DNA from: Clostridia bacterium
GTDB taxonomy: Bacteria > Bacillota > DSM-521 > Neomoorellales > JACIYF01
Length of the DNA: 64,000 nucleotides
Direction of reading: 5' to 3'
Assembly: GCA_014360065.1 (NCBI GenBank)
Contig: JACIYF010000003.1
Location: 1,567 to 65,566, forward strand
In this document: positions 7,371-64,000 of the stretch, one piece after another
How positions within the stretch are numbered: the first letter of the stretch is position 1
How the letters are laid out: the number at the start of each line of letters is the position of its first letter
Notes under the pieces: model-generated
Databases searched by the model: none
Told to the model about the DNA's origin: nothing
Seen by the model: the letters and a program-made list of their open reading frames with translations, nothing else
Position numbers and translations under genes: made by a program

Positions 7371-7385
7371 GCTGTCATTTGCAAT

Positions 7386-7551: not shown

Positions 7552-7554
7552 CGC

Positions 7555-9178: not shown

Positions 9179-9191
9179 GGAGCGTCCGGCC

Positions 9192-11241: not shown

Positions 11242-11361
11242 AAGTCATTTCTCCCCGGAGTTATCTGATCTCCAGCAGTAGCTGGCAACCCTAATTCCCA
11301 CTGACTGTGTTAGTATCGGAAGCAGGCGAATGCAAGGTGAGGCTACGCTTTTATCTTCGGC

Positions 11362-11445
11362 TTAGGGATACCACTTGAAGAAGGCGCCGCCAGCTAGTAC
11401 CAGCGTGACCAAAGCGGTGAGGATCTTCAGGATGCGCATCTTCAT
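11362..11445 (-). CDS. Candidate 27-aa single-TM micropeptide
   Basis: GAAGGAG lies 8 nt before the ATG. The product is MKMRILKILTALVTLVLAGGAFFKWYP. It is unlisted because of its size. Confidence 0.3.
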   Translation of the reverse strand: MKMRILKILTALVTLVLAGGAFFKWYP

Positions 11446-11603
11446 CCTGTTCACTCCTTCATCTTAAGCTCCGGCCTTTCGGCCGGGCATCGCTCCGCTT
11501 TGAGGTCCGCTCCGCTCTTTTCCGCTTCGCTAGGTAGCACTCCCGACCCCCGCATCCGCCCCCATCCGATACTTGCCGATCAAAACTCTTCAGCTAGAGG
11601 CAA

Positions 11604-12323: not shown

Positions 12324-12479
12324 AGATCCTAACTTTTCCTCTAAATCCAAAGCTAATCCAATAAAATTAACAAACAAATAAGCCGAGCCACTTATGCAAG
12401 CCGCTCGGTTGACTGCTTACATAAGTGGTCGGCTTATAATCGCAATCTGGTCGATCCGGCCTTTGAGGTCAGGCCTGGA

Positions 12480-13019
12480 CTATTCGGGCTCGATCAATCC
12501 GTAGTTGCCGTCCCTCCGGCGGTAAACCACGTTGATCTCATCAGTTTCGGCGTTGGCAAAAACAAAGAAGCTATGCCCAACCAGATTCATTTGCATGATT
12601 GCTTCTTCTACCGACATGGGTTTGAGGGGAAACTTCTTGGTACGGACAATTTTTCTCTGTTGCTCTTCCGCCTCCGCCTCGCCCAAAGCCAAGTTATTGG
12701 CGTTGACCAGATTTTTAAGGCCTTGCTCCCGCACCCGCTTGGCCAGTTTAGTCTTGTGTTTCTCTATCTGTTTCTCTAGCTTCTCCAATACCAGATCGAT
12801 CGAGGAGTACATATCCCCCGTCTCTTCTTCGCCTCGCAAGATCAAGCCGTTCAGAGGAATCGTCACTTCGGCCACGTGGCGATCGCCCTCAACTGAGAAG
12901 ACTACCTGCACCTGGTCTAGAGAGCCAAGGTAGCGCTCCAGTTTTCCCAGGCGCTTGGCCGCGTAATCCCGAAGCGCATCAGTGACGGGTACGTTCTTGC
13001 CACGTGTAATCAGCTCCAC
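12480..13019 (-). CDS. hpf: Ribosome hibernation-promoting factor, long form
   Basis: N-terminal MELITRGKNVPVTDALRDYAAKRLGKLERY and C-terminal dimerisation domain KPMSVEEAIMQMNLVGHSFFVF...VVYRRRDGNYGLIEP are both present. Confidence 0.9.
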   Translation of the reverse strand: MELITRGKNVPVTDALRDYAAKRLGKLERYLGSLDQVQVVFSVEGDRHVAEVTIPLNGLILRGEEETGDMYSSIDLVLEKLEKQIEKHKTKLAKRVREQGLKNLVNANNLALGEAEAEEQQRKIVRTKKFPLKPMSVEEAIMQMNLVGHSFFVFANAETDEINVVYRRRDGNYGLIEPE

Positions 13020-13144
13020 TATGTACCTTCTCCTTTCCCTTGTGTTACCCCACCGGAAGCTGCTGTTATTGCTTCCAAACTGGATATATTATTCCCTTTA
13101 TTTGGGTAGAATCCTTCAGTCCTTTCCCTTGGTTGCCATATACT

Positions 13145-48900: not shown

Positions 48901-49185
48901 TAGCTATTCACCCGACCGTCGATCCCCTGCAATTTCAGTTGGACTTCACGGCCATGCCCCCCAAGCTGAATACTAGGTTAAGGACCGGCGAAAACCCCGT
49001 CGCGGTCTTTCGTAGCTAGCATTCAACGTACCCAGGTTGGTTGTACGGCTTAGCGTGAACCAGTAGGCTAGCTACGACTTATGTTAATTCGTTTCCTTAC
49101 TAACTATTTCCTGCTTGTCAAACTCTCCTAGGACATGCTAAAAAGAGAAGGGTCCACCCATTCATCCCCTGGAAGGGAGATATCT

Positions 49186-50268
49186 ATGTCCATCCTACTC
49201 GCCTTTAATGCTGTCCCCGCCTCGGCCCGAACTGGAGCCTTCAGCGAGTGCCTAGCTCCCCAAGTGGTTTCCGCCATTAGCGCACCCTTGGCGGAAGCTG
49301 GACTAGACATAATCCTTTGCAACTTGTACTCACCCCGGGATTTGGTAGAAACGCTGTCCGCTCACCCAAACATCAAGCTAGCCCTGGTACTGGCAGAAGG
49401 TTACCTCAAGTTTCCCTTTACCTTGCACAACGGCACCGGTCCCGCTCACATCCGAAGATTGCTTAGAGCCTTAGGAAAACCCTTTTCCCATTCCGGGCCC
49501 GAAGCCATGACGGTGTTAAGGCATAAAGACATTACCTACCAGGTGTTGTCTGAGGTAGGAATAAGGGTTCCTTTCTACTTTAAGGTTGAGGCCAGCCTGG
49601 CTGTAACCAACAGGATAGAACAGCTCCCGCCGCCTCATGTGCTGCCCTTTCCGCTGTTCGTCAAGCCAGCAGGAGGAGGTGCCAGCCTGGGCATAGACAG
49701 CCAATCCATAGTCTACACCCCTGAAGAACTGGAGCGGCAAGTAAGGAAAGTGGCTCAAAGTTTTAAGGCCGATGTCATCGTGGAAGAATACTTGCCTGGA
49801 CGTGAATACACCATTGGGGTTATCGGTAATGAACGGCCTACAGTGCTGCCAATCCTAGCTTTTCCGCCCCACTACCCCATTCGCACTACCCAGGTCAAGC
49901 GTAGCGAGCACGAGCAAAGGGATCTGTTTGAGCTTTTTACCTCTTCCCATCCCCTTTACGCTCCCCTGGCGAGCTTGGCTGAGACCATATTTCGGACCGT
50001 AGGGGCCCAGGATTGTATCCGTATCGACCTCAAAGAAGACCAAGAGGGCCGGCCGGTGGTAATTGATGTCAATGGTACCCCGGCCTTGGCCCCTACCTCG
50101 TCCCTGGCCTTTGTGGCCAGCGCCGCTGGTCTATCATACTCTGAACTCATCAACCTGGTGTGCGGCGAGGCCATGCTGCGAAACCAGATTGACCCGCCCC
50201 CGGATATGGCCGCCATCCTTAGCGCCGCCTACGTCAAGCTGGAAACCTACCGCCAGCAGGTAGCTTAG
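49186..50268 (+). CDS. ATP-grasp enzyme, D-alanine--D-alanine-ligase-like
   Basis: GGAAGGGAG lies before ATG 49186. FPLFVKPAGGGASLGI, VIVEEYLPGREYTIGV and IRIDLKED..GRPVVIDVN are present. Confidence 0.7.
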   Translation: MSILLAFNAVPASARTGAFSECLAPQVVSAISAPLAEAGLDIILCNLYSPRDLVETLSAHPNIKLALVLAEGYLKFPFTLHNGTGPAHIRRLLRALGKPFSHSGPEAMTVLRHKDITYQVLSEVGIRVPFYFKVEASLAVTNRIEQLPPPHVLPFPLFVKPAGGGASLGIDSQSIVYTPEELERQVRKVAQSFKADVIVEEYLPGREYTIGVIGNERPTVLPILAFPPHYPIRTTQVKRSEHEQRDLFELFTSSHPLYAPLASLAETIFRTVGAQDCIRIDLKEDQEGRPVVIDVNGTPALAPTSSLAFVASAAGLSYSELINLVCGEAMLRNQIDPPPDMAAILSAAYVKLETYRQQVA

Positions 50269-50538
50269 CTGTGGGCCCTACTGCTCCGGGTTAGGGAGCG
50301 GGCCATGCGCTCCAGCCTGAAGACGGTCATAAATTCCACATTCTTGTTGATCCAGGGCTGCCGGTATGTCGGTATCTTCTAAGGCTCTGGCCTCATATCA
50401 CTTCTGTCCCTGATTCTAGGTTGCTTCCAGGCCGAACAGCGCCCGGCCAAGCTGCTGCCAGCCAAAAAAGATATTCATCGCCACAAATGCTAACCGCCTT
50501 TAAGTGTCACAGTTGAGATAACCAGGCAATAAGGCCGG

Positions 50539-51801
50539 TTACTCGTATACTTTTTCCTCAACGGCATCAGCTTCAGCCGCATCGGCTTCTACGTCCCGGC
50601 CTAGCACACCGGCCCGGTCAAATTCTTGGTAGAATTCATGTTGTATAATTAAATCCATGACTTCGTTGGTACCGGTCCAAATCATAATTAGGCGGGCATC
50701 GCGAAGCAACCTCTCCACCGGGTAGATGCTCGTGTAGCCGATTCCACCCATGACTTGCATGGCATGATTAATGACTTCCCAGGCCGACTCGGTAGCAAAC
50801 TTTTTGGCCTCGGATACCATGCGCCGCTGCAAAGAGGAAGGCATACCTTCATCGATGGAGCGAGCGGCAGCATAGACCAAGGATCGCGCCGCATCCAGCT
50901 TAGTGATGGAGTCGGCGATTTTAAAACTTACCGCTTGAAACTCTTTAATGTGGCGGCCGAAAGCTTTGCGCTTGGTGCTATAACGGGTAGCCACCTCCAG
51001 CGCCGCCCGAGCCATGCCAATGGCTCCGGCGGCGCTGGTCATGCGCTCAGGAATCATCATTTGATAGAAAATCGGTGCGGCTCCGTGGAGTTCGCCCAAT
51101 AGGTTTTCTTCAGGAACGAAGGCATCCCGAAACAACAGCCGGCCCGCGCCCCCACCTCGGGTACCCATGAGCCCATAGACGTGCTTGACTTCCACCCCCG
51201 GCCCCCGGTCAACTATGAAGGCGCTGATGGCCTGATGGGGAGCTACCGCCGGATCTAGGTTGGTGCGAGCATAGACCATAAAGTAATCCGCTCCTTCGGC
51301 GCCGACCACAAACCGCTTCTGGCCATTTAGGATAAAGCCCCCTTCTACCTTCTCCGCCTTGGTGGTAGCGCCAAAGAAGTCAGAGCCGCCTCGGGGCTCA
51401 GTTAAAGCCTCGGCAGTGCAAAGCTCGCCAGCCAAGGTGGGTCGAAGGTACTTCTCCTTTAGCTTGGCGCTTCCAAAACGGTTAATAGCCTCACCCACAA
51501 TGGTGGGTAGAGAATAGAGGCAAGCCAGGGAAGTACCAAGGACCCCCACTTCTTCAAGAGCTACGATTTCTGAACTCCAGCCTAAACCTCGGCCGCCGTA
51601 TTGGCTCGGAAAGCGAAGGCCCAACAAGTTCTGTTGCCCTAAGGCCCGAACATAACCCCGAGGGTAAACTATCTTCTCAGCGTCCATATCCAAAATCAGT
51701 TGGCGGTCCACACGGGCAACAAACTGTCTAACTTCATCGCGAAGCTTCCTTTGATCCTCATTTAACAAGAAATCAAACAAGTCTGACAACCCCTTTCCCA
51801 A
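50539..51801 (-). CDS. Acyl-CoA dehydrogenase
   Basis: TEP.GGSD, the catalytic-region pattern [22 protein letters not shown], and [11 protein letters not shown] are present. Length is 420 aa. Confidence 0.9.
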
Positions 51802-52291
51802 GCGTTCTTAAGCCGTGCCCTACCAAGCCGCTTTCAGGTTACCCGGCTCAAGTCCCCTTCGCGGGCATCCCCGCCCCTACGGAAGGCCTCAGGAATTCTC
51901 CGGCCTCTCCCAGTGCTCCCCAGACCCTCGGCAATTCTTGTCTGCTACAACAAGTCCTGGCACTTTCTCCCCGGTCACTCCGGCCAGCAGAGCTGACAAA
52001 GCAGGACTTTCCAACTTGCCGTCCCTTGCCTACACCTCCCCTAGTTCCCTCGCCTTTTTTAACCCCACTCTTCTCCTCAAGGAGCTTGGCAAACTGCTCT
52101 CGAAACTCCAGCATTTCCGCTTTCAGCTGCTGGAACTCGTGAATCATCTCGTCAATCTCCCTGATTTTGGTCACCATATTCGATGGTACGGACCAGCTGC
52201 ATCTTCTGGGTAGGATCGACTTTCCGCCCCCGAGCTTCAATACGTGGTGGCGCCCATGCCGCAACCGGGAAAGGGCTTTTGAACCCGAAGC

Positions 52292-53881
52292 TCACACTGC
52301 TGCATCCCTTGGCTGGTGTCGGCGGCGGAACTCAGTAGGGGCCATCCCATGGGCTTTGCGAAATACCCGGGCAAAGTAATTGGCATCGTCATAGCCCACC
52401 TGACGAGCAATTTCATAGATGGGAGCATCAGTATTAAGGAGGAGATCAATGGCTTTTTTCAAGCGTACCCGTTCAAGATACGCCTTAAAACTGGTTCCAG
52501 TTTGCTTGCGGAAAAGGGTACTGAAGTACGACGGGCTCAGACAAACAGTGCGGGCTACTTCCTTTAGCGTAATGCTGCGGCCCAGATGCTTTTGTACGTA
52601 TGCCTCAGCTTCAGCAACCATTTGCTCCGCGTGACTCATTCCCGTTTGGCTTGCCAGGACAAGAAGAGCAGTGATGGTTTGTCGCATCCATTCCCTCAGG
52701 CTTGTTTCTCCTACAACTTTCGCTAACCAGCGCAGCTGCCGACAGCTCAAATGGAGCACCTCCCTGGGGTCGACCATACGGCTCAAGGTAGCCCGCGAGG
52801 CTATGGCCAGGATCTCCGCTGCCCTTGCCTGCCTTTCGCCAACGTAGGGGGAGTTGTGGATAACCTCATCTAGAAGCTGCAGGGCCAGATGGATTGCCTG
52901 GTCAGGCCTGCCCAGCCGGATGGCAACGGCAAGCTCTTCCTCCTTTTCCCACGGGTAAACCCAGTTGGAGGGGCCAGCTGCCTTGATGCTACTGAAGCTC
53001 AGCCACGGCTCCCGGAGGCGATTCCGGGTAGCCTTGAGGAACTCCAGGGCCTGGAGGGCCTCAGCATACGAGACGGTTAAAGAAGAAGGATCCGGTACGG
53101 GCCTGCCGATGCCGATCAAGGTGGTGGTACCGCACCTTTCCAGGAGGCCTGAATACATCCGTTCCCCAAGCTCTGCCACCCTTTCAGGCGACGGCTCCTC
53201 AGCAGAAGAAGAAAGGAGCAGTACCAGCCTGCCATCCACGGCAGCTCCAAAGGCGCCCCACGGCCAGGCTAGATCCTTGGCGGTATCGATCCACTCCCGC
53301 CAGTCTGCTCTGCCGTCTTGGGACTCTATAACTAGGCAGACGTGATGCAATTGGCAAGACTGGGAATTGCTTCTATGGGACGGTTTAGCTGAGGGATCGG
53401 CCTGACTTCCGGTCCCCTGGGGAATCAGTGCATGGACTAGGTACTGCTCAAGCAGTTGGCAGGTAGACTTAAGGTTGGCAGCAGCACTTCTTTGTGCTTC
53501 GCTAGCGGCAAGGGAATCGATGCAACGTTGGAGGGCCTGGTGGAGCTGTTCGTCTTCTACCGGCTTGACCAGGTAATCAAAGGCTCCATGCCGCAGCGCT
53601 TCTTGGGCATAGTCGAAACGGTCATAAGCAGTCAAGATTACCAGCCGAGCTTCTGGAGAGACTTCTTGCAGTTGCTCCATAATCTCTAGGCCGCTCGGGC
53701 CCGGCATACGAATATCCAAGAAAACGAGATTATGCCTGTGTTTAGCGGCTGCAGCCAGTGCCTCCCTCGCGTTGGCCGCTTCATCTATGCGTTCCCAATT
53801 CACTCCTGACTCGCTCAGCATGAGAGCAAGGCCCTGGCGCACCACTGGCTCGTCATCAACGATCAGTGCTCTAAGCTGCAT
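52292..53881 (-). CDS. Response regulator with REC domain, long linker domain and AraC-type HTH (YesN-like)
   Basis: LIVDDEP...FLDIRMPG..G..., the AraC signature YFSTLFRKQTG.SFKAYL...R..KA..LL and IA..VGYDD..YF.R.F are present. It overlaps the kinase gene by 19 nt. Confidence 0.85.
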   Translation of the reverse strand: MQLRALIVDDEPVVRQGLALMLSESGVNWERIDEAANAREALAAAAKHRHNLVFLDIRMPGPSGLEIMEQLQEVSPEARLVILTAYDRFDYAQEALRHGAFDYLVKPVEDEQLHQALQRCIDSLAASEAQRSAAANLKSTCQLLEQYLVHALIPQGTGSQADPSAKPSHRSNSQSCQLHHVCLVIESQDGRADWREWIDTAKDLAWPWGAFGAAVDGRLVLLLSSSAEEPSPERVAELGERMYSGLLERCGTTTLIGIGRPVPDPSSLTVSYAEALQALEFLKATRNRLREPWLSFSSIKAAGPSNWVYPWEKEEELAVAIRLGRPDQAIHLALQLLDEVIHNSPYVGERQARAAEILAIASRATLSRMVDPREVLHLSCRQLRWLAKVVGETSLREWMRQTITALLVLASQTGMSHAEQMVAEAEAYVQKHLGRSITLKEVARTVCLSPSYFSTLFRKQTGTSFKAYLERVRLKKAIDLLLNTDAPIYEIARQVGYDDANYFARVFRKAHGMAPTEFRRRHQPRDAAV

Positions 53882-55089
53882 CCCTTCACTTCCCCCATGC
53901 TGTCAATATAGGGCAGAAAAAGACGGACTTCAGTGCCGTTGCCGGGGGAGCTCTGCAAGGTAAGGTCGCCCTGTTGGTCAAACATCAGCCGGTACCGGTG
54001 GTACACGTTGAGGAGGCCAGAGCTGGTACCATTAAGCGACCGCTTCATGGCACGCCGGATGGCCAGCACCTTCTCCCGGCCCATGCCTACCCCATTGTCT
54101 CGTACGCTGAGGCACACTCTCCCGCTCTTATCCAGGCAGCCACTGATCCATATGGTTCCGCCCGACTCCAGCGGCTCGATGCCATGGACCAGGGCGTTTT
54201 CCACTAGAGGCTGTAGTGACAGCGGCAAGATGAGTACCCGCAATAGGTGCTCGGGCACCTCCTTGGCTATGTGGAGGCGGTCACCGAAGCGCACCTTCTG
54301 GATGGAGAGGTAGCTGTCCACCAGCTCCAGCTCTTGGGCCAGCGGGATCAGGGGATCCTTGGGCCGGAATGTCAGCTTCAGAAGCCGTGCCAGCATCTGG
54401 GTCACCTGTCGGGTCTGGGGAGCGTTCTCGATCAGGGCCAGCATGGCGACTGTGTTGAGGGCATTGAATAGGAAGTGGGGGTTGATCCGGGCTTGCAGGG
54501 CTTTCAGTTCAGCCTCCCGGCGGAACTTTTCCGCCTCGGCCCGCTCTCTGGCAGAGACCGTAATAGCTACTTTGACAAAACAATTGCTAAGAGCGTCGAG
54601 TATTTCGCCAGTGACTCGGAGCCGCTCGTGATTCCAGACGGGTAGCTCGCAGAAGGCTCTTAATAGTTCATTGCTATCGACGCCTATCTCTCTGGCAAGA
54701 CAGGAGATGGTCTCCAGCTGCTTCTCTGTTGGCTTCTCGGCTACGATCTCGCCGCACACCAGGGCTCCGATGCATTTGCCTTCGACGGCTATGGGCACTG
54801 TGATCCGCCTCGCCTGAGCATGGCAGTGGCTATAACGGGCGCTCATGTCGGCGGAGCACTCGACAATTGCCTGCCTGGCCGATGCCTTGCAGCGCTCTCG
54901 TCCCGCCGGAGTGCTGCGAACCAGTTGGCAGAACCGGCATGGCTGCTTAGTATCGGGAGTGAGGATGTATTCCCCGTCGAGATCGACAAACTTTAACCAT
55001 AGGTCGAAGAACTCTCCTATGGCGTCCACCAGGGGCTGGAGGATTCTGATTGGCACTGCCAAGGGGTTAGACTGCGCCTTCTTGGCCAT
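53863..55089 (-). CDS. Soluble sensor histidine kinase: N-terminal PocR-type sensory domain plus LytS/YesM-type His_kinase and HATPase
   Basis: No TM segment is apparent. The Cys-rich PocR-like core is CRFCQLVRS...RC...SHCHAQ...VPI..EGKCIGALVCGE. INPHFLFNALN (His_kinase) and LVENALVHG...DNGVGM (HATPase) follow. Confidence 0.8.
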   Translation of the reverse strand: MAKKAQSNPLAVPIRILQPLVDAIGEFFDLWLKFVDLDGEYILTPDTKQPCRFCQLVRSTPAGRERCKASARQAIVECSADMSARYSHCHAQARRITVPIAVEGKCIGALVCGEIVAEKPTEKQLETISCLAREIGVDSNELLRAFCELPVWNHERLRVTGEILDALSNCFVKVAITVSARERAEAEKFRREAELKALQARINPHFLFNALNTVAMLALIENAPQTRQVTQMLARLLKLTFRPKDPLIPLAQELELVDSYLSIQKVRFGDRLHIAKEVPEHLLRVLILPLSLQPLVENALVHGIEPLESGGTIWISGCLDKSGRVCLSVRDNGVGMGREKVLAIRRAMKRSLNGTSSGLLNVYHRYRLMFDQQGDLTLQSSPGNGTEVRLFLPYIDSMGEVKGCSLEH

Positions 55090-55522
55090 ATTGGCTGCCT
55101 CCGTGCTCCATCCTATCTATCAAAATCCGTTTTCTAGATATTCGCTCTTTTGTTGGTTTATCCTGCCGGCTGCGCTTCTAACTGGGCCCGTTAAGCCAGA
55201 AACTTAAGCCTTCGGAAACGTAGCCTTGTGCCTACACTGGGTTCGGGGTTCAGCTGGAAACTTTTTTGATTAATGAAGACAAATTTTCGGTGCTAGTTAT
55301 CTTGTGCTATTGCTTATAAGTAATAATTACTATTTTTTTTAGGAAATCACAAACGAATCAAGGTTAGCAATATGAAAATTCAGAGGTTAGAGGCCGACGG
55401 GGAGAGAATAAGCTCCGAGGATCCGTTGGGAGGGCCTAGGGCCGCTCGCCAGTTTGGATAAGCTATCACCTGGCAGGCCAAGCCCACTTTTACGAACCAC
55501 AATTAAGAAAGGGGGTATAAAG

Positions 55523-56005
55523 GTGGCCAAGTTAACGGAAGAAATGAAAACTGTTCTCAAGGTGGTAGGCAAGGGTGGAGCGGTGGTACATCTTACCACG
55601 TGCAGCGCTGACGGGGAGCCGAACATAGTCGGCGAGCGATTTGTTACTCACTACAAGGATGAATATATCCTCATCGCCGAGATGTACGCTCAGAAGACCA
55701 AGGTGAACCTGAACGAAAACCCGGTGGGATGCATCTCTATTGCCAACCCGGTGCGCGGCCACACGTGGGTATTCCGGGGTCCCTGCACCATCATCCGCCA
55801 CGATGCGCCCGACAACTACCAGTGGTACGGAATCAAGGCTGGCGAGGTGCTCGAAGAGTGGGGCAACTGGGCGGAGAAAGAACCGCCCGACGAGGTGCCG
55901 CCGGATATCAGGCCTCCCAAGCTGGTGCAGCGGGGCCTGATTGCGCTCAAGGTGGACGAGGTGTACAGCTGGGCGCCCGAAGAGGCGGGACGCAAGATCC
56001 TTTAG
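55523..56005 (+). CDS. PNPOx-like split-barrel flavoprotein with a Pro/Glu-rich C-terminal extension
   Basis: AAAGGGGGT lies 6 nt before GTG 55523. ...HLTTCSADGEPNIVGERF...YILIAEMYAQKTKVNL..NP and a C-terminal EKEPPDEVPPDIRPPK are present. Confidence 0.55.
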   Translation: MAKLTEEMKTVLKVVGKGGAVVHLTTCSADGEPNIVGERFVTHYKDEYILIAEMYAQKTKVNLNENPVGCISIANPVRGHTWVFRGPCTIIRHDAPDNYQWYGIKAGEVLEEWGNWAEKEPPDEVPPDIRPPKLVQRGLIALKVDEVYSWAPEEAGRKIL

Positions 56006-56020
56006 GCAGGAGGGGTGAGA

Positions 56021-56434
56021 ATGGCTGTGCCATTGACGCCGCGGATGAAGGATTGGCTAGAAACGTTGGGAGCACACATTGCCACTGCGACTAGGTCAGG
56101 CTTTCCCACGGTAACGGTAGTTGACCGGGCAATTGTGGACGGGGGGAAGGTTACATTTATCCTTTCCAGCGCTCAGGCGGAGCAGATCAGGGGTAACCTG
56201 GAAGAGAACCCTCGGGTCGCCATCGGTCCTGGCGGTCTAGGCGTGGTTCGTGCTCCGTACCAGTTTAAAGGCAATGGGCACCTGGAGGGCGACCGGCTGG
56301 TGGTCGAGGTTGACAAGATCTACTGCACCCGTCCTGGCCCGGAGGCAGGGCTACGGCTGGATGTACTGGGATACGAGAAGATGCGAGAGTTTGATGAGAG
56401 CCGCTGGACCGATATGGCTCCGAAGCCAAATTGA
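56021..56434 (+). CDS. PNPOx-like split-barrel flavoprotein
   Basis: GGAGGGGTGAG lies before ATG 56021. ...HIATATRSGFPTVTVVD...AEQIRGNLEENPRVAI is present. It begins 15 nt after the preceding gene. Confidence 0.55.
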   Translation: MAVPLTPRMKDWLETLGAHIATATRSGFPTVTVVDRAIVDGGKVTFILSSAQAEQIRGNLEENPRVAIGPGGLGVVRAPYQFKGNGHLEGDRLVVEVDKIYCTRPGPEAGLRLDVLGYEKMREFDESRWTDMAPKPN

Positions 56435-56510
56435 GAATGGAAGCTACCGAGACGAGAATAGAGCCCATGAGGCCACCTACCCCGATCGGTCGTAGAAAGG
56501 AAGGCTTAGA

Positions 56511-58283
56511 ATGGAACGTGAGATATTAGCTGCTTTACATGCAGCGACTGCCCAGCCCGACTACCTGACCACGGAGAAATTTGATGCCATTCTTGGAGGG
56601 TTTGGGGTCTTCAACCTCGGGATCTGGGCAGCAGCCAACGTTATCGCTAAGGAGAAGCAGAAAGGGAAAAAGATCAACGTAACCGTCAGCAATGAAAAGA
56701 CTACAGATATCGATGAAGTAGCCCGTAAGGCAGTCAAGGTGCTCATGGATTGCGGGGCTGACGCTTCCAACGCGTCGCTGGCGGCGGCAACCCTTCTCTA
56801 CTGGGCGGGAAGCAGCACCACTGCTGGCATACCTGCGCCCAACCGGAAATTGGGGGCGGTATGCCGCATGGCAGCTGGGGCGCCGGCAGGTAGGGTGGCC
56901 AACATTCCCACCGAGAAGCTCAATAACAAGATCTCAGGTTTTGCTGCCGTCCAGGCTATGTACCAGGCCATGCAGGGTCAAATCCTTGCTCCTTGGAGCG
57001 GGGACCTAACGCCGCTGGGAGTTGCAGGCAGTCCGGTCACCGGTCATACCCGGGTGGGGGAGGACCTGCTGTTTCCGGAGTTGGCCCAAAAGCTGGTACC
57101 GATTGGCGTGGAGGCAATGCTTCAGGCTTACCGGTCGGTAGGCATCAAACCGTGTCGCTGGATGGCCAGCCTATTGGCCTCCGCGGCTGCCTTGGAAATC
57201 CTGCACCCCGATGCTTACGTGGGCGAAGAATGGGGTCCCTTCCTGCAGACTCGTACTCCTTACGTTTGTGGTTTGGCAGCGGTGAAGGCAGCCAAGATGC
57301 CTGAGAAGATCCATATCCGCGGCACCGGGGAAGAGCTAGAGACTGCCAAAGTAGTTGGCGACCTAGCCATGATCCTCAAGGATTGCGGAGCTCCCACGGT
57401 GGTGGGCATGATCATGTTCAATGAGATCAACGCCCTGATCGCCGAAGGTGCCATCCTAGGTGTGGGCAGAAGCGGCGGACCCTTGCTCTTGCCGCTGACC
57501 CACTGGTGTACGTCGGCGTCGCTGTCGCTCTATCTACTTAGTAAGGGAATGGCGGAAGAGGAGGTGGCGGATGTCATTTCCCGAACCATGGATGCCTACT
57601 TCCAGCCTGAGCACGCGGCAGTAGCCACCAACCTACTAGCTCGGCGGGCAAACTTCATCGAGAGGGGCCCGGTAACCAGAGCGGTGATAATGGCCACGGA
57701 GCCTTCCCTAATCCAGTCGGTTCTTAAGCGGGCGCGGTATGCGTACGAGGGGCTGAGGGCGGGTAAGACCCTGACCGAAGTCACCCAGGAATTGGAACTC
57801 CAACGCATTGAAGATATCGGCTCCGGTACGGCCAGGATTTTCTCCCAAGTCCTGGGGCGCAACATAGAGTATGTTCGCTTCCTCAATGTCCGGCCCGGGT
57901 CAGGCAGGCGTACTCATAAGTTTGCCAAGAGGTACTTCGCCTTTGACGGTTATGTGGATGTGGAGCTGAAAGTGGACGGAAAGGTCTACCGCTTCGAGAA
58001 TATTTATGCAGAGACCATTCCCAACGCTCTTTTAAACCAAGATGCAGAAACCCTGGATCTGGTCCAGTGTTTCGCTGCTGGCGCTGTTGACCTTCTCAAC
58101 GCTGGTGCTGTAGCCATGGATGTGGTGGTGCCGGCTTGCGTAGCGGCAGCTATGGGCATGAACCCGGAGGAAGCTGTACAGCAGGCATCCGAAGGTGCTA
58201 CCATCAGCATGAGTATTCCGGTTCCAACCATTACCGAGTCGGCGACCCTGGCAAGCCGGATAGCCCGAGGGTTGCAGGACTAG
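56511..58283 (+). CDS. 590-aa Ala/Gly-rich soluble protein, no family recognised (core of the PocR-TCS-associated operon)
   Basis: The ORF is long and clean, with GAAAGGAAGG upstream of ATG 56511. There are 8 scattered Cys but no CxxC cluster. I recognise no Rossmann, P-loop or radical-SAM motif. Confidence 0.7.
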   Translation: MEREILAALHAATAQPDYLTTEKFDAILGGFGVFNLGIWAAANVIAKEKQKGKKINVTVSNEKTTDIDEVARKAVKVLMDCGADASNASLAAATLLYWAGSSTTAGIPAPNRKLGAVCRMAAGAPAGRVANIPTEKLNNKISGFAAVQAMYQAMQGQILAPWSGDLTPLGVAGSPVTGHTRVGEDLLFPELAQKLVPIGVEAMLQAYRSVGIKPCRWMASLLASAAALEILHPDAYVGEEWGPFLQTRTPYVCGLAAVKAAKMPEKIHIRGTGEELETAKVVGDLAMILKDCGAPTVVGMIMFNEINALIAEGAILGVGRSGGPLLLPLTHWCTSASLSLYLLSKGMAEEEVADVISRTMDAYFQPEHAAVATNLLARRANFIERGPVTRAVIMATEPSLIQSVLKRARYAYEGLRAGKTLTEVTQELELQRIEDIGSGTARIFSQVLGRNIEYVRFLNVRPGSGRRTHKFAKRYFAFDGYVDVELKVDGKVYRFENIYAETIPNALLNQDAETLDLVQCFAAGAVDLLNAGAVAMDVVVPACVAAAMGMNPEEAVQQASEGATISMSIPVPTITESATLASRIARGLQD

Positions 58284-58326
58284 GCCGGAACTCCGATTTA
58301 ACACGCCGAAGGGGCGGGATGGTCAG

Positions 58327-58623
58327 GTGGCAAACACCGGTAATGGTAGCGGCGGGCGAAAGCTGCCTAAAAAGATGCCCTGGGTCATACCTTCACAGTG
58401 TGAGGGGTGTGGCGACTGCGTCAACCGCTGCCAGCGCAAGGGTCTGGTGATGTTGGAAACTAATGTTGCTGGGGTATACGTGCCGTGGCTTCTGGAGCCG
58501 GACCTGTGCTCCGGCTGCGGTCGGTGTGCCAGCGGCTGCGTCGTGGGCGGCATTGTCATGACCGAGTACGTAGAGCAGGCTAGGCGGCGCTTTCTGGAGA
58601 CACGACCGCGGATTGCTGTTTAG
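58327..58623 (+). CDS. Small 2x[4Fe-4S] ferredoxin-like protein
   Basis: CEGCGDCVNRC and CSGCGRCASGC motifs are separated by about 30 aa. The start is uncertain (GTG 58327 or ATG 58375). Confidence 0.65.
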   Translation: MANTGNGSGGRKLPKKMPWVIPSQCEGCGDCVNRCQRKGLVMLETNVAGVYVPWLLEPDLCSGCGRCASGCVVGGIVMTEYVEQARRRFLETRPRIAV

Positions 58624-58684
58624 GGCTGGGCCTTAAGTTACAGATAACGGCGGAGGGAAACGAAAAGAAGGAGTAGATCTAGGT

Positions 58685-59140
58685 GTGCGTGAGGTAAGCC
58701 TGCGGGAGCTGGTAAACTATGTCAGGGTAGCTGGAGGCTATGCCGGTTACACCGACGCTGAGCGGGCAGTTAGATCCGTGCTGGGAGGAGTTTTGAGGGT
58801 TACGGAGCCTAGCGAGCGGACGGCGCTTGTGACTATCCTTCCTGCCGATTTAAGGGAGTTGTGGCAGGGGCCTGGTAACCCCGCCACCGACCGGACCAAA
58901 GAGTCTGCAAACGGTGAGGCTCGGGATAGCGAAGCTCTGCTACAAGCTGTCTGCCACCAGGCCAGGTATAGCGAGGGGTCCGAGGCACGACGGGCAATTC
59001 TGGCTGTATTCGGAGCACTGAAGGAGAAGCTCCAGGAGCGTACTGCCGCCTGGGCCGACAAGCTGCCGCAGGCGGCCCGCCCCTTTTGGGAGCGGGCCCA
59101 TACCATCGATGAACGGCAGGACGCCTACCAGTGCCTCTGA
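58685..59140 (+). CDS. DUF2267-family protein (two repeats)
   Basis: The pattern (Y..V...GG......AERA.R.VL..L...........LP..LR..W) appears twice. It uses a GTG start after GAAGGAG. Confidence 0.5.
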   Translation: MREVSLRELVNYVRVAGGYAGYTDAERAVRSVLGGVLRVTEPSERTALVTILPADLRELWQGPGNPATDRTKESANGEARDSEALLQAVCHQARYSEGSEARRAILAVFGALKEKLQERTAAWADKLPQAARPFWERAHTIDERQDAYQCL

Positions 59141-59181
59141 CGCTGAGGCAGAGGTACCTGGCAGGTACCGGGGGTGGGGAG

Positions 59182-59769
59182 ATGACAGAGTCTTGTCTGC
59201 TTCTGGCCCAGGTAGATGATGTGACCGGCGAGGTGTTGGGCCGGGCAGGAGATGACTTGATGGCGCTTGGCGCTCGCAACGTACAGCTTTTGTCGGGGCT
59301 GAGCAAGAAAGGGCGCCCAGCGTATGTTCTGCTTGTGGATACAACTCAGGAGAAGGTTGTTTCCGTTGGTAGCTACCTGGCTTTGGAACTGGGTGTGTGG
59401 GGCTACCACGTCATACCGACAGAGCACCGGCATATGAGCGTTGCTTTCAGGGAAGTCACGGTGCATCTGCTCGGGAAAAAGGACGAACGCAGACTGTTGT
59501 GCCGAGTAAAAGAGGTCCGGGACGGTGAAAAGCTTGTGGGCCTAAAGGTGGAGCACGACTTTATCTGTCACCTGCAGGAGCGTCTACGGCAGGAAGGAGT
59601 CGAGTGCTCCCTGCGCGCCCTACGGGTGGCGTTGGAGAGCAGGCTATGGGAGGAGGCATCTGCCATAAGGCTAAGCGTCTCCGGCGGCAGACTGATTGTT
59701 AGTTCTGACCGGGACTGCTCTTCTATGCGGGAAGGTCCTGCTGGCCTCGTTGTTGAAGGTTCATATTAG
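59182..59769 (+). CDS. Stand-alone LarC-C-terminal-like (DUF111/LarC2-like) domain protein
   Basis: AQVDDVTGEVLGRAGDDLMALGARNVQLLSGLSKKGRPAYVLLV...LELGVWGYHV...R...VKV...EHDF parallels, from memory, LarC2 (E.NLDD.TGE.LGY....LL.AGA.DV...PI.MKK.RP...L.VL...ETTT.GVR...PEY.DC). Confidence 0.5.
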   Translation: MTESCLLLAQVDDVTGEVLGRAGDDLMALGARNVQLLSGLSKKGRPAYVLLVDTTQEKVVSVGSYLALELGVWGYHVIPTEHRHMSVAFREVTVHLLGKKDERRLLCRVKEVRDGEKLVGLKVEHDFICHLQERLRQEGVECSLRALRVALESRLWEEASAIRLSVSGGRLIVSSDRDCSSMREGPAGLVVEGSY

Positions 59770-59823: not shown

Positions 59824-60240
59824 CTAGAGCCGAGCAAGGAACTCCGCGGGCGGACAATTGCTATTCTCTGGTATTCCTTAATATCCAGTAGGTGCTCGGC
59901 GCCGCTGACGATGCAGTCCGCGCCCGCCTCCAGCGCAGCAGCAACAAACTTATCGTCATCCGGGTCCGCACTTGCTCCTTTAACCTCAATCTTGCCTGAA
60001 ACTATGGTTGCCAGCCCCGGAGCCCCGCAAGATATTTCCCGGCCAAGGCTTCATCTATGCGCCCGTAGTAGCGCCGCAGTTTCTCCCTTTGGAGCACTTC
60101 AGCCACTTCATCCAGGATAGCTGGGGAGAGAATGAGTTCGAATTGCTTTTGTCGCCAAGCCCTAATTAGCAGGGCAGGCGCTCCCTGGGGACTGATTAAG
60201 CCGAAACCAAAACGTTGGTGTCAAGTACAACTTGCTGAAT
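59824..60240 (-). pseudogene. Decayed PIN-domain (PIN_3-type TA toxin) gene: no start codon, at least 3 frameshifts
   Basis: Fragments lie in three frames: VLDTNVLVSA | LISPQGAPALLIRAWRQKQFELILSPAILDEVAEVLQREKLRRYYG | GKIEVKGASADPDDDKFVAAALEAGADCIVSGAEHLLDIKEYQRIAIVRP | AEFLARL-stop. The N-terminus overlaps the nagA stop codon. Confidence 0.6.
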
Positions 60241-61804
60241 ACTTGTCTCGTATATATCTTACCAGTCCATTGATCATGGTTAGCCGAACCTCAAAATTCG
60301 GCTCCACTATTACTACATCAGCATCCTTGCCTGGTTCCAATGATCCCTTGGCGCCATCGATGCCAAGCCGACGGGCTGGGTTAAGGGATGCCAAATTAAT
60401 AGCTTGGGTTAAAGACATGCCTGTCCACTCCATCATGTTTCTTATAGCCTGGTTTAGTGTAAGTATACTTCCCGCCAAAGGAGCAGTTGGAGAAACTAAC
60501 CTTACGATGCCATCCTTAACTACTACTTGTTGCCCACCCAAGTCATAGTCGCCCTCAGGTAAACCACAGGCGCTCATGGCATCGGTAATTAAGACCAAGC
60601 GATCCAGCCCGGTTCCGCCCTGATTTGCATGTAGAGCAGATCGCCGCTCTCCTAACAAAGCTCCTACCAGCAAGCGAATAACTGCTGGGTGTACATGATG
60701 TCCATCAGCAATTAGCTCCAAAGTGACTTCGGGACAATCGATAGCAGCGCCTGCCGTTCCAGGCTCCCGGTGATGAAAGCCCCGCATGGCGTTAAAAAGG
60801 TGAGTGACATGAGCAACTCCCTTGGCCACAGCAACCTTAAACTGCTCATAAGTGGCTCCTGTATGGCCGGTACTAGCAATGACGTCATAGTCGCGGAGAA
60901 CCTTGAGCAAACTGCTGGCACCCGCAATCTCCGGAGCCAGGGTGACCATCCTGACCAAATTGGAACCACACGCTGTGGGGAAGGGCTTCTGGCTTATTAG
61001 CCTAGCCCCCGCTTTCAAAAGGTCCTCTAATTCACGGGCGTTAGCAGGACGGATCTGGCCTAGCGGCTGCCCACCAGCGTAATCCGGGTTGAGGTACGGC
61101 CCCTCTAAGTGCACCCCCAAGGGATAGGCGCCCGGAGGCAATGTGTCTGACGCTAGTGTGTTCCCGTAGCTCCCCCCGGCAGATTGCCAATTGTGGAACA
61201 CGCTTTGAAGCTTAGCAGCTGTATCAAGGGCGGTTTCCAGGGTCTTCGGGTCAGAAGCTAGGGTAGTAGCTAGGAAAGCAGTAGTCCCAAAGCGCGCCAG
61301 CATCCGGGCTGCCTTCATCCATCCTTCCAACGGGTCAGTAGTAAAGTCGCCGCCTCCGGCCCCATGAACATGCAGGTCGATGAACCCGGGGGCTACCAGG
61401 TGACCCCGGGCATCTAAAACCTCAAGGGTATACGATGTGCTAGTATCGCCACCGGCACTTTTACCGGCGCCCGTGATGGGGCTAGACCCTAGGCCCAACA
61501 CCTGGGCTGGCCCGGACAGGATCAAGCGTTTTTCCAGGTAGGCTAGATCCATCCTGGTTCCTTGTTGGCCCAAGCAGAGCGCTACCAGTTGACCCGGCCT
61601 CTGCAGGGCGTTTTTGGCCAGGAAATGGGCTGCCGTACCCCGGGGGCCAACAGCCTGAATCTTGCCCTTCTGGATGATCAATTCCCCATCGTTAATAATC
61701 CGACCCGGGGCTATCAAGTCGCCACCCAAAATCACGGTTACAACCGAAGACGGTTCCAACCGCCCCACTTCTTGGCTCACTCTTACCCCACCCTGACCTG
61801 GCAT
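60221..61804 (-). CDS. nagA: N-acetylglucosamine-6-phosphate deacetylase with unusually large insertions (527 aa)
   Basis: PGFIDLHVHGAGGGDF, GVHLEGPYLN, VTLAPE, GHTGATY, HLFNAM and LITDAM are present. About 70 extra residues lie between the first beta-strands and the HxH motif. Confidence 0.8.
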   Translation of the reverse strand: MPGQGGVRVSQEVGRLEPSSVVTVILGGDLIAPGRIINDGELIIQKGKIQAVGPRGTAAHFLAKNALQRPGQLVALCLGQQGTRMDLAYLEKRLILSGPAQVLGLGSSPITGAGKSAGGDTSTSYTLEVLDARGHLVAPGFIDLHVHGAGGGDFTTDPLEGWMKAARMLARFGTTAFLATTLASDPKTLETALDTAAKLQSVFHNWQSAGGSYGNTLASDTLPPGAYPLGVHLEGPYLNPDYAGGQPLGQIRPANARELEDLLKAGARLISQKPFPTACGSNLVRMVTLAPEIAGASSLLKVLRDYDVIASTGHTGATYEQFKVAVAKGVAHVTHLFNAMRGFHHREPGTAGAAIDCPEVTLELIADGHHVHPAVIRLLVGALLGERRSALHANQGGTGLDRLVLITDAMSACGLPEGDYDLGGQQVVVKDGIVRLVSPTAPLAGSILTLNQAIRNMMEWTGMSLTQAINLASLNPARRLGIDGAKGSLEPGKDADVVIVEPNFEVRLTMINGLVRYIRDKYSASCT

Positions 61805-62541
61805 AAGCTTGAATTCAGGTGCGAGGCAGCCTCCCGGTCGGCAACCACCGTCACTGCCGGGTGGAGCTGCAATACCGACGCTGGAACCTCCGGCGTAACC
61901 GGCCCCTCCAGGGCCCGCGCTAAGGCCAGAGCTTTTTCTGCACCAGAAGCCAGCAAAAGAATCTCTTTCGCCCTCATGATGGTCTTAATCCCCATGGTAA
62001 TGGACTGACGCGGAACCCTCAAAGGCAAAAAGGGTTGAGAATTGATTTCCACCGTCTCCCGATCCAGATCGACCACCCGGGTACGGGATTCCAACGGGGC
62101 CCCGGGCTCGTTGAAACCAATATGCCCGTTGCGCCCAAGGCCCAGGATCTGGAGGTCAATTCCCCCGGCTTTCTCAATCTCCTTCTCATAGTCAGCGGCA
62201 ACCTGTTCCGCATCTTGGGGATTTAGCTGGCTGGGCAGCAGGTGGATACGCCTGGGGTCAATGTTGGTTTTGCCAAACAAGTGTTCCTGCATGAAATAAC
62301 GGAAGCTGCGCGGGTCTTGGGGATTCAAGCCAACATACTCATCCAGGTTAAAGGTAGTGACTTCAGCCATGTCCAAAAGCCCTCTACGGTACAGCTCTAC
62401 CACCTCGCGGTAAAGGCCCACCATGGTGGTTCCGGTTGCTAGTCCCAGCACCAAGTCGGGCTTACGGCGTATGCGATCGGCAACAATGCTTGCCCCCTGA
62501 CGACTCATATCATCGTAATCCCAGGTTACTATTACCCTCAT
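61783..62541 (-). CDS. nagB: Glucosamine-6-phosphate deaminase
   Basis: GGGAAGGGG lies before ATG 62541 (MRVIVT...). LGLATGTTMVGLY, FNLDEYVGL and LGLGRNGHIGFNEPG are present. Length is 252 aa. Confidence 0.9.
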   Translation of the reverse strand: MRVIVTWDYDDMSRQGASIVADRIRRKPDLVLGLATGTTMVGLYREVVELYRRGLLDMAEVTTFNLDEYVGLNPQDPRSFRYFMQEHLFGKTNIDPRRIHLLPSQLNPQDAEQVAADYEKEIEKAGGIDLQILGLGRNGHIGFNEPGAPLESRTRVVDLDRETVEINSQPFLPLRVPRQSITMGIKTIMRAKEILLLASGAEKALALARALEGPVTPEVPASVLQLHPAVTVVADREAASHLNSSLCQVRVG

Positions 62542-62620
62542 GACGACCCCTTCCCGATCAAGATTCACCAAAGCTAGCCCTGCCAACAGCTCGCCCACCA
62601 TCAGCGCCTTTATCATCGAT

Positions 62621-63421
62621 TCAGAAGAAAAATGCAGGTGAAGGGCTGAAAATGTCTGCCAGCCGCCGGCAAGCCATGAAAGCCTGCGCCGCCCGGCACC
62701 CGGCCTCAAGACCTCGCACCCTAACCATAGCCTCATAATAGCTTTGATAGGGAATGCCCTGGTGCGGGCGAGGTCCACCACCTACCGCATCAAGGCGGAA
62801 AAGTTCGTATTTCTTTAGAGCAGCCAGCCATATATCCACATACCCGGAGACATCAATGTAGACCCCAGGGTTAAAGCCGTTCAGGTCCTCGCAATTCTCG
62901 CCGAATAGCACCTCGCCCACCCGCCAGGGCCGGCTACCGCCTGGGTCATATGCGGGATCCGCAGCCAGCTTTACCCCCTTGAGCACCGATTGGTGAGTGG
63001 CAACGTGGCGGGGATGCCAGCTGCCCAGCCAGTGAGTGACTATGCCGTCAGGCCTTTCTGTCCGGATGAGATCAGCTATGGTTTTCCCGAGAGTATCGCT
63101 CCCCGGCAAAGCTCCCGCCGCAAATCCCAGCCAAATGCAGCCGGCCCCCAGCTCTTGGGCCGCCAACTTCATTTCTTCCTCCAGCTGGGCCGCAAATACT
63201 TCCGGAGGTTTAGAAGGATGTCCTCTCTCCCCCCGGGTAAGGTGGACCATGGTGACCCGGTGGCCCTGAGAAGCGTACCTGGCCGCCACTGCTCCTGCCA
63301 TGCACTCGGCATCCATGGCGTGAGCGCCAATAACCATCAAGTGCCTTTTGTCCGTCGCTACCGCCCCCTCCAAAAACCAGTTGTTTTCTAACCGGACCGC
63401 CGGTTCCTCGCTCACCCACAA
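62621..63421 (-). CDS. PIG-L/LmbE-family N-acetylglucosaminyl deacetylase
   Basis: LMVIGAHAMDAECMAGAVAA...GHRVTMVHLTRGERG and HP.H.. motifs are present. Confidence 0.8.
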   Translation of the reverse strand: MWVSEEPAVRLENNWFLEGAVATDKRHLMVIGAHAMDAECMAGAVAARYASQGHRVTMVHLTRGERGHPSKPPEVFAAQLEEEMKLAAQELGAGCIWLGFAAGALPGSDTLGKTIADLIRTERPDGIVTHWLGSWHPRHVATHQSVLKGVKLAADPAYDPGGSRPWRVGEVLFGENCEDLNGFNPGVYIDVSGYVDIWLAALKKYELFRLDAVGGGPRPHQGIPYQSYYEAMVRVRGLEAGCRAAQAFMACRRLADIFSPSPAFFF

Positions 63422-63484
63422 GCCCTAGGCTCACCACAACTCGGCAACGTTTTTGTTACAGGAGCTTCCTGCTTCAAGCACACC

Positions 63485-64000
63485 TTATTCCTTACGTGTG
63501 CCCGTAGGAACGCCATTAGAGGTACTGCCGCGCCAGGGAAAGGTGATCCTGCCCAGCAGCGCTGGGTGTCTAGCGCCACTAGTGCGAGGCACATTGGCCG
63601 GAAGACCCTGGATGGTCTCATCAGCAAGGATGGTCCAAGTCATAGCCTCCCTGGCTTCGTTGGGTATGCCGAAGTCCTCATGGGTTTTGACCGCAGCCGG
63701 AGCCAGACACTTTCGCACAAAGGCAAGGAGAGTCTTATTCTTGGTACCCCCGCCACCCAGGATTACTTCATCCACCTGCCCCCGCGGGTACAGGAACCGC
63801 CTGTAGTGATAAGCCATGCATTCCGCTGTATAGGCAGTTACGGTAGCAACGATGTCAGCCGAATTAAGGCCAAGCTCTTGACTCTTGACCATAACTTGGT
63901 CAACGAACTCTTCCCCAAAGTCTTCCCGACCGGTAGTCTTGGGCAGGGGGCGCTCAAGGTAAGGATGCCTGAGCAATTGCTCCAGCAGTTCTCGGTTGAC
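63485..64000 (-). CDS. anmK: Anhydro-N-acetylmuramic acid kinase, C-terminal part (gene continues beyond the window)
   Basis: LPKTTGREDFG, VILGGGGTKN, THEDFGIPNEAREAMTWTILA and the frame open to nt 64000 (..VNRELLEQLLRHPYL) support the call. Confidence 0.8.
   Translation of the reverse strand, partial: VNRELLEQLLRHPYLERPLPKTTGREDFGEEFVDQVMVKSQELGLNSADIVATVTAYTAECMAYHYRRFLYPRGQVDEVILGGGGTKNKTLLAFVRKCLAPAAVKTHEDFGIPNEAREAMTWTILADETIQGLPANVPRTSGARHPALLGRITFPWRGSTSNGVPTGTRKE

Follow-up and report, generated by a model that had tools for sequence, protein, structure and literature searches.

An orphan protein and its LarC2-like partner in a Clostridia operon: a conserved two-gene module with a probable link to the nickel-pincer nucleotide cofactor pathway

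The locus described here lies in a stretch of 64,000 nucleotides (nt) of DNA from a Clostridia bacterium (contig JACIYF010000003.1), referred to below as the window, and consists of a two-component regulatory pair on the minus strand and a divergent six-gene operon on the plus strand. The operon encodes two PNPOx-like split-barrel proteins (A and B), an orphan protein of 590 amino acids (aa) called X, a ferredoxin, a DUF2267 protein and a free-standing LarC2-like protein. These eight genes, their domains, the 19-nt overlap of the two regulatory genes and the gaps in the operon had been described in an initial annotation, and all of them were reproduced at the same places using open reading frames (ORFs), Pfam and NCBIfam. 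The gene set was found to co-occur in synteny across several phyla, and the arrangement is therefore not due to chance. In both bacteria and archaea, X and a LarC-type protein make up a conserved module of two genes that stands in or beside the genes for pincer biosynthesis far more often than chance allows.

Protein X (56511-58283, plus strand) could not be placed in the initial annotation, and it has no match in Pfam or NCBIfam and nothing better than E = 0.22 among Protein Data Bank (PDB) sequences. A confident structure model was obtained (predicted local distance difference test score, pLDDT, 89.6; predicted template modelling score, pTM, 0.91), and a Foldseek search of the PDB with this model gave no significant match (best E 0.2, TM-scores of 0.15 or lower). 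X is a soluble, mostly alpha-helical protein without a detectable relative among solved structures. It does not belong to the LarA, aldo-keto reductase or ornithine cyclodeaminase families; a relationship to LarA was found neither in Pfam or NCBIfam nor by sequence or Foldseek searches of the PDB, which we take to contain LarA structures. The initial annotation had named membership of X in a characterised family and a lack of synteny as outcomes that would speak against its reading; no family match was obtained, and the genes stand together in related genomes. In the literature covered, which lay mostly outside subscription journals, neither the X family nor a LarC2-like partner encoded as a separate protein was found to be described.

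In a collection of 5.8 billion proteins, 257 homologues of X from at least six phyla were found. Among the 120 that were listed, identities range from 52 to 100% and almost all proteins have a length of 588-608 aa; those with a name are called hypothetical, except for one JGI label, and the 100%-identical match is a protein from a Clostridia metagenome-assembled genome (MAG). A profile search for the superfamily gave 152 matches among 1.84 billion cluster representatives, in which the core family is a single 50%-identity cluster, accompanied by approximately 15 full-length paralog clusters and a remainder of mostly fragments. X is therefore the representative of a small orphan superfamily. Within the family, the conservation is very high, with a mean column identity of 70% over 48 sequences from several phyla. 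The invariant polar residues include R112, K113, R119, K136, K140, H179, E184, D185, E229, H232, D234, H268, R270, K290, D291, E312, R320, R466 and D479, and no invariant Cys is present in the alignment. Among others, the motifs PNRKLG..R, K..NNK, GH...GED, LEI.HPD, H.RG and LKD.G.PTVVGM persist in paralogs that are only 31-39% identical. The pLDDT of the model falls below 50 only at positions 27-29 and 321-324, both in glycine-rich stretches with invariant glycines, which suggests that these segments are candidate ligand-binding lids.

The last gene of the operon encodes the LarC2-like protein (59182-59769, plus strand; 195 aa, start ATG 59182). It matches the Pfam family Ni_insertion (PF01969, E = 1.8e-14), with the match confined to positions 239-362 of the 375 in the model, and it marginally passes the NCBIfam model LarC2 (NF052512; 50.2 bits, cutoff 50). 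LarC2 has been described as the hexameric core of LarC that activates P2TMN with cytidine monophosphate (CMP) to P2TCD (PMC13510736), after which LarC1 inserts nickel and releases CMP (PMC13510736, Sci Adv 2026); LarC has been compared to the molybdenum insertase Cnx1 (PMC13510736). The LarC2-like family was aligned with the LarC2 sequences of Lactiplantibacillus plantarum (6BWO) and M. thermoacetica (12BI) and with six full LarCs. The motifs D..GE, GA.(D/N)V (as GA.NV) and KK.RPG are retained, ETTTLG.R...R....R is replaced by EL...GYH....H and PEY.DC by EH, and three conserved His residues are specific to the family. Based on this alignment, the protein is assigned to a distinct and well-conserved LarC2 subfamily and is not regarded as a decayed copy. 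The LarC-C-terminal-like protein of the initial annotation is a dedicated accessory rather than noise. LarC1 or full LarC is sometimes encoded near the LarC2-like protein in relatives, and its constant partner is X. Five loci (L006, L009, L010, L030 and L035) encode the additional LarC2-like protein as well as a LarC of full length, indicating that the LarC2-like protein is tied to X and is not one half of a split LarC.

The neighborhood of X was studied in other genomes. For the core family, one genome per species was used, resulting in 46 loci that were annotated by tblastn, and only loci with enough flanking sequence were counted (33 core loci at 1.5 kb and 24 at 10 kb). In 31 of the 33 loci, X has a LarC-type gene no more than 1.5 kb away, and LarB or LarE is found within 10 kb in half of those testable at that distance (12 of 24). 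Two types of organization are observed. Type I loci have the order PNPOx-A (sometimes duplicated), PNPOx-B, X, ferredoxin and/or DUF2267, LarC2-like, and occur in Bacillota, Thermoleophilia, Actinobacteria, Chloroflexi and Thermodesulfovibrio-type Nitrospirota. LarB, LarE and often LarC or LarC1 are usually immediately adjacent to them. In Desulfofundulus thermobenzoicus, the six genes of the operon precede LarB and a LarC1-type gene, after which come a convergent PocR kinase/regulator pair and LarE-LarB-LarC; a second LarB and a LarC1 are thus located inside the X cluster itself. Type II loci have the order URO-D-family gene, X, LarC2-like, with genes that often overlap or nearly abut, and occur in Nitrospinota, Desulfobacterota and Sulfobium. 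The URO-D-family protein scores 67 bits against the hemE model (cutoff 303) and matches best to the MtaA/CmuA methyltransferase model (177.8 bits, below the cutoff of 235), by which it is classed as MtaA/CmuA-methyltransferase-like and not as HemE. A tetrapyrrole link, considered for the URO-D neighbor and a cobalamin cluster in locus L005, is weakened by this assignment. In the type II exception L004/L049, LarE, LarB and a LarC1-type gene are present. No LarA-type protein was found among 20 cluster neighbors scanned in L006, L010 and L020 or in the precomputed Pfam labels of L001-L005.

Paralogs of X were collected by database look-ups and a metagenome scan, which gave 337 relatives and 80 retained loci, of which the ORFs were clustered and the cluster representatives annotated. 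As in the core family, nearly all testable loci (41 of 44) have a LarC-type gene no more than 1.5 kb from the X paralog. Four groups can be distinguished. Group A is archaeal and has mcrB-D-G-A followed by the X paralog and a full LarC, with a convergent gene for the methyl-coenzyme M reductase (MCR) glutamine C-methyltransferase; the McrA model matches with 950 bits. Group B, with at least seven metagenomic loci, has LarB, LarC, LarE and an X paralog, and no other gene family is common to most of these loci; it is a lar operon with X in the position of LarA. In group C, approximately 15 or more loci have an X paralog and a LarC2-like gene among genes of the tetrahydromethanopterin one-carbon (C1) pathway and its biosynthesis, including MtdB-like, FwdD/B/A, Ftr, a GTP cyclohydrolase-HPPK fusion, DHPS-like, GHMP-kinase-like, a flavoprotein with an Fe-S domain, CitG-like and DUF447. 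Three group C loci have LarB and a LarC-type gene of 271-288 aa, the size of LarC1, directly upstream of X and LarC2-like. In group D, the X paralogs are found among archaeal housekeeping genes. Examples of group A are the archaeal metagenome contigs L056-L058 (approximately 5600-13100), where the X paralog has 615 aa, and mcrA also precedes the X paralog in L058, L059, L062 and L063. The group C arrangement was observed at L055 and among L108-L137 (for example L111, L113, L118, L129 and L136).

Several further observations were made at these loci. In one Thermodesulfovibrionales MAG (L044 and L049), the trio of URO-D-like, X and LarC2-like is present on two contigs and is identical in the proteins compared, which may reflect either a true duplication or an error of the assembly. 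Upstream of one trio copy lie a flavodoxin, LarE, LarB and a paralog of 588 aa (L004, 6913-8679) that shares 40% identity with X, and LarC1 lies downstream. In two Nitrospirota loci (L042, 10001-11774; L051, 10001-11762), the tblastn matches of X are split, suggesting a frameshift, a pseudogene or a sequencing error. In L020 (14365-18747), the X cluster is followed by a homologue of the nickel carbon monoxide dehydrogenase (Ni-CODH) catalytic subunit (419 bits, equivalog cutoff 478), a NuoF-like flavin mononucleotide (FMN)/Fe-S protein and a DsrE-like protein. Ferredoxin-domain tblastn matches approximately 4 kb past LarB in L014, L015, L017, L032 and L039 hint at a possibly similar arrangement, and this Ni-CODH neighborhood may reflect either lineage synteny or a second nickel theme. 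Locus L020 also has an ORF of 233 aa (9268-9969) between PNPOx-B and X without Pfam or NCBIfam match; a gap of approximately 0.8 kb at this place in other Thermodesulfovibrio-type loci suggests that it is conserved there, and it is absent from the window, where the gap is only 76 nt. In addition, a metallo-beta-lactamase-fold protein recurs near X in L010 (14753-15766, between LarE and LarB) and L020 (5446-6444), and, as ORF cluster c15, in L090, L098, L117, L124, L126 and L128.

The other four genes of the operon are less widely shared. The ORF of PNPOx-like A opens at 55454, and its likely start is the GTG at 55523 behind an AGGGGG ribosome-binding site at 55510, giving a protein of 160 aa (55523-56005, plus strand) that matches PNPOx_N (PF01243) with 39.3 bits, above the Pfam cutoff of 28.1. 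Its orthologue in L001 also has 160 aa, and orthologues of 45-87% identity are located upstream of X in type I loci. PNPOx-like B (56015-56434, plus strand; 139 aa; sub-threshold PNPOx_N match) always directly follows A in these loci, and the two probably form a heterodimer. No sequence relative of A or B was found in the PDB. The ferredoxin (58327-58623, plus strand; 98 aa) has two CxxCxxCxxxC(P)-type [4Fe-4S] motifs and matches Fer4_7 and related Pfam models, and orthologues are present in Bacillota, Thermoleophilia, Chloroflexi and Actinobacteria loci. The DUF2267 protein (58685-59140, plus strand; 151 aa; Pfam 65.5 bits) has the uncharacterised TTHA1432 (E = 0.13) as its only PDB relative, and in the Nitrospirae locus L020 a DUF2267 gene likewise separates X from LarC2-like. 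The PNPOx pair, the ferredoxin and the DUF2267 protein are a clade-specific shell outside the conserved core, and an MtaA-like methyltransferase takes their place in Nitrospinota, Desulfobacterota and Sulfobium. The initial annotation had treated the six genes as one unit, which agrees with the synteny, but the conserved core consists of X and the LarC2-like protein only.

Within the operon, A and B are separated by 9 or 15 nt, according to which start is taken for B, the following gaps measure 76, 43, 61 and 41 nt, and no terminator-like sites were seen on the plus strand. The divergent control region of 433 bp (55090-55522) is AT-rich, as the initial annotation had described, with a GC content of 0.474 (measured over 55000-55499) compared to 0.55-0.61 in the flanks. 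No Rfam match or riboswitch and no strong sigma-70 consensus were found in this region. It does have a 16-nt direct repeat, GTT(A/C)AGC(C/T)(A/G)GAAACTT, of which the two copies (55190-55205 and 55248-55263) are 81% identical and 58 bp apart, and an AT-rich palindrome, TATTGCTTATAAGTAATA, at 55308-55325. The repeat and the palindrome could be sites for an AraC-type regulator, and the two-copy repeat could possibly have arisen by chance.

On the other side of this region, the minus strand encodes a cytoplasmic histidine kinase (53863-55089; 408 aa) and a response regulator (52292-53881; 529 aa), of which the genes overlap by 19 nt. The kinase matches PocR (107 bits), His_kinase (PF06580; 91 bits) and HATPase_c, and the regulator has a receiver (REC) domain (Response_reg, 98.7 bits), a GGDEF_2-like middle domain (45.8 bits) and an AraC-type helix-turn-helix (HTH_18, 92 bits; HTH_AraC also matched). 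All domains are above threshold, and the pair has the composition of a YesM/YesN-like PocR kinase with a REC-AraC regulator. No hydrophobic or transmembrane-like N-terminus is visible in the kinase translation; the earlier description of a kinase without transmembrane segments, with a Cys-rich PocR-type domain and a paired REC-AraC regulator, is borne out by Pfam and the translation. The pair accompanies the X cluster in six Bacillota loci (the window, L006, L007, L008, L009 and L035), and tblastn places it in four different positions or orientations in the Bacillota loci. That the pair is kept with the cluster in such varied arrangements supports a regulatory link. Other regulators found at X clusters are GntR/UTRA proteins in Nitrospirae and a PucR-type protein in one Bacillota locus.

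Convergent with the operon, an amino-sugar recycling set is encoded on the minus strand (60221-63976), consisting of a NagA-type amidohydrolase, a glucosamine-6-phosphate isomerase, a PIG-L/LmbE-type deacetylase and an AnmK fragment. LarB and LarC directly follow LarC2-like in the Moorellales locus L006, which is 89% identical, indicating that the lar genes are not located directly downstream of the cluster in the lineage of the window. Upstream, a D-Ala-D-Ala-ligase-like ATP-grasp protein and an acyl-CoA dehydrogenase are encoded (49135-51801), followed by an ORF of 138 aa without Pfam match (51848-52264) just downstream of the regulator gene. None of these three recurs near X in other genomes.

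The initial annotation had noted that larA, larB and larE are missing from the window and had left the LarC link open. The window indeed has no LarB or LarE, but the link is not left open by this, since LarB, LarE and LarC or LarC1 adjoin the same genes in relatives, which places the system with the nickel-pincer cofactor pathway. This link is considered very probable. A more specific proposal, which is held tentatively and falls somewhat short of an even chance, is that X is the catalytic protein of an inducible system and bears the nickel-pincer nucleotide (NPN, also written NPMN) or a close variant. In LarB-LarC-LarE-X operons, X takes the position of LarA and no other conserved candidate is present. 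In addition, X is a large and enzyme-like protein under strong conservation, with many invariant acidic, Lys, His and Arg residues; conserved Lys (113, 136 and 290) and His (179, 232 and 268) residues are candidates for binding the cofactor, for example through a Lys thioamide and a His-nickel bond. The same genomic logic has led to validated users before: NphT and the NPAD ornithine cyclodeaminase, both non-LarA users, were nominated by adjacency to larB, larC and larE without larA (PMC13524815).

A mechanism can be proposed for the system with X as cofactor-bearing catalyst. The pincer nucleotide would be made by LarB, LarE and LarC, which would be encoded outside the window; the synthesis of this nucleotide by the three proteins is established chemistry. 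The LarC2-like protein, a predicted nucleoside triphosphate (NTP)-binding oligomer like LarC2 and the dedicated partner of X, would then either activate the cofactor or its precursor with CMP or hand the cofactor over to X, as the near-obligate adjacency of the two genes suggests. X with its cofactor would carry out hydride-type chemistry on a small substrate. By domain logic only, A and B, a probable flavin heterodimer, would split the two-electron hydride transfer into one-electron steps and pass electrons to or from the 2x[4Fe-4S] ferredoxin. The PocR kinase would sense the substrate or a related metabolite, and the REC-AraC regulator would turn on the divergent operon, as their conserved association with the cluster suggests.

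Several points weigh against a role of X as cofactor-bearing catalyst. Homologues of LarB, LarE, LarC1 and URO-D were not found by tblastn in the 64-kb window, and in most type II loci lar biosynthesis genes are missing up to a distance of 10 kb. To our knowledge, none of the known pincer enzymes (LarA, NphT and the ornithine cyclodeaminase) needs its own copy of LarC2, and the obligate pairing of X with the LarC2-like protein fits a role of X in cofactor processing just as well. Given the lost LarC2 motifs, the LarC2-like protein may bind neither cytidine triphosphate (CTP) nor the pincer precursor. The electron relay from flavin and Fe-S proteins to X is inferred from domain names only, and the PNPOx assignment of B is only probable, as its match (E = 3e-5) covers part of the model and reaches 24.8 bits where Pfam requires 28.1.

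The main rival explanation is that X and the LarC2-like protein are a module for processing or delivery of the cofactor and not its end user, which is given a clearly lower probability than the catalytic role. By analogy with LarC2 and LarC1, the LarC2-like protein would activate a pyridinium precursor by nucleotide, and X would modify the precursor, insert the metal or install the cofactor in client proteins, such as the PNPOx-like proteins here and the MtaA-like or MtdB-like proteins elsewhere. Throughout the superfamily, X goes together with a LarC-type protein, as LarC1 does with LarC2, and this explanation accounts better for the obligate pairing; the neighbors vary by clade and the pair is constant, as would be expected for a service module. 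Eight Thermodesulfovibrio-type loci have LarE and/or LarB and LarC2-like without LarC1 within 10 kb, and X could fill the role of LarC1 there, while the three loci with LarB and a LarC1-sized gene before X and LarC2-like also fit this explanation. In addition, proteins with NAD(P)- or FMN-binding folds are plausible repurposed pincer binders, as seen for the aldo-keto reductase NphT. However, a full LarC or LarC1 stands beside X in L006, L007, L008, L009, L010, L030, L035, L049 and groups A and B, and X is therefore not a general replacement of LarC1. X was also considered as a diverged LarC1 and rejected, since hhalign gave a probability of 0.3% for X against LarC including its LarC1 domain. 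Moreover, the LarB-LarC-LarE-X operons have no conserved client. In the same loci, X is 52-89% identical to the window protein by tblastn, compared to approximately 41-74% for LarB, LarE and LarC to their references, a rough comparison as the references differ; such high conservation is unusual for an accessory factor, though possible.

An improbable extension of the catalytic role is that the X superfamily comprises new-fold nickel-pincer enzymes of C1 metabolism, with hydride or methyl transfer linked to tetrahydromethanopterin or methyl-coenzyme M. The LarC2-like protein would supply a cytidine dinucleotide cofactor that retains CMP, like the NPAD of ornithine cyclodeaminase. This would account for the embedding of paralogs among MtdB, Fwd and Ftr genes, the adjacency to mcrBDGA and the packing of the MtaA-like gene against X in Nitrospinota and Desulfobacterota.

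The same C1 neighborhoods also fit an explanation outside the pincer pathway, in which the LarC2-like protein has been recruited to other chemistry, X is a cofactor-independent or flavin/Fe-S-linked enzyme of C1 or small-molecule metabolism, and the proximity to lar genes is secondary. The missing lar biosynthesis genes near the window operon and most type II loci agree with this, as do the altered motifs and the threshold-level NCBIfam score of the divergent LarC2-like protein. It is distinctly improbable, because LarB/LarE adjacency is found in Bacillota, Actinomycetota, Chloroflexota, Nitrospirota and paralog loci, far above the expectation for genes of which most genomes have one copy or none, because LarB-LarC-LarE-X operons exist, and because D. 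thermobenzoicus has a second LarB and a LarC1 within its X cluster. That X is a transporter, a metal-storage protein or a metallochaperone feeding nickel to LarC is hardly credible: known lar operons include transport genes and the top Foldseek matches, all non-significant, are helical membrane proteins, but their TM-scores do not exceed 0.15, and a membrane transporter or nickel store is rejected by the hydropathy (grand average of hydropathy 0.14, with just two marginal hydrophobic windows, one containing Asp) and the composition (1.2% His and 1.4% Cys, without a His- or Cys-rich tract or an invariant Cys).

If X is indeed a cofactor-bearing catalyst, it would help to explain which proteins use the pincer cofactor in organisms without LarA. 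Hundreds of prokaryotes make the nickel-pincer cofactor without LarA, and the other user scaffolds found so far number only two, each a repurposed NAD(P)-binding fold (PMC13524815). With X, a third scaffold other than LarA would be added, and for the first time one whose fold is not related to a solved structure. No earlier user has its own LarC2-type partner, and this pairing would hint at a new way of cofactor loading or modification. With paralogs that reach into methanogen-type C1 metabolism and adjoin methyl-coenzyme M reductase, the family could tie organometallic nickel chemistry to global carbon cycling. The cultured isolate D. thermobenzoicus DSM 14055 carries the full cluster and the lar genes, and the idea can therefore be tested now.

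The regulatory pair resembles the YesM/YesN-type systems and PocR-domain sensors, with which it shares the PF06580 kinase core, the regulator with REC and AraC-type helix-turn-helix domains and the PocR ligand domain. It differs from these in that the kinase is soluble and has PocR as its sole sensor domain. The Salmonella PocR is a regulator of 1,2-propanediol utilization, whereas the operon presumably regulated here has no diol-utilization genes.

Compared to the lactate racemase system of L. plantarum, X clusters with LarB, LarE and LarC in relatives, takes the position of larA in some operons and has a LarC2-type protein encoded alongside. LarR controls lar, and control of expression by a metabolite-sensing regulator is probably shared as well. 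In contrast, X has no similarity to LarA in sequence or fold (no Pfam and no PDB match), and it keeps a private LarC2-like copy even beside a full LarC. Its partners (split-barrel proteins, ferredoxin and DUF2267) suggest net redox chemistry rather than racemisation, and the window itself has no larB, larC1 or larE. With the LarC cyclometallase, the LarC2-like protein shares the alignment over the LarC2 domain, three conserved motifs and the pairing with a second protein, as LarC2 with LarC1. It differs in being free-standing, in the absence of ETTTLG.R, R....R and PEY.DC and in its three family-specific His residues, and X shows no detectable homology to LarC or its LarC1 domain.

As NphT and the ornithine cyclodeaminase demonstrate, scaffolds of unrelated origin are able to use the cofactor, in one case as a dinucleotide variant, and both have the same genomic signature as X. 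Unlike X, which has no recognisable fold or family, they are easily recognised as repurposed NAD(P)-binding folds, and both work without a LarC2-like partner of their own; they are proven to bind the cofactor, whereas X is a candidate. A pincer biosynthesis cluster with a user or accessory protein is thus known, and new are the scaffold of X, its private LarC2-like partner and the gene shell of split-barrel pair, ferredoxin, DUF2267 protein and PocR system.

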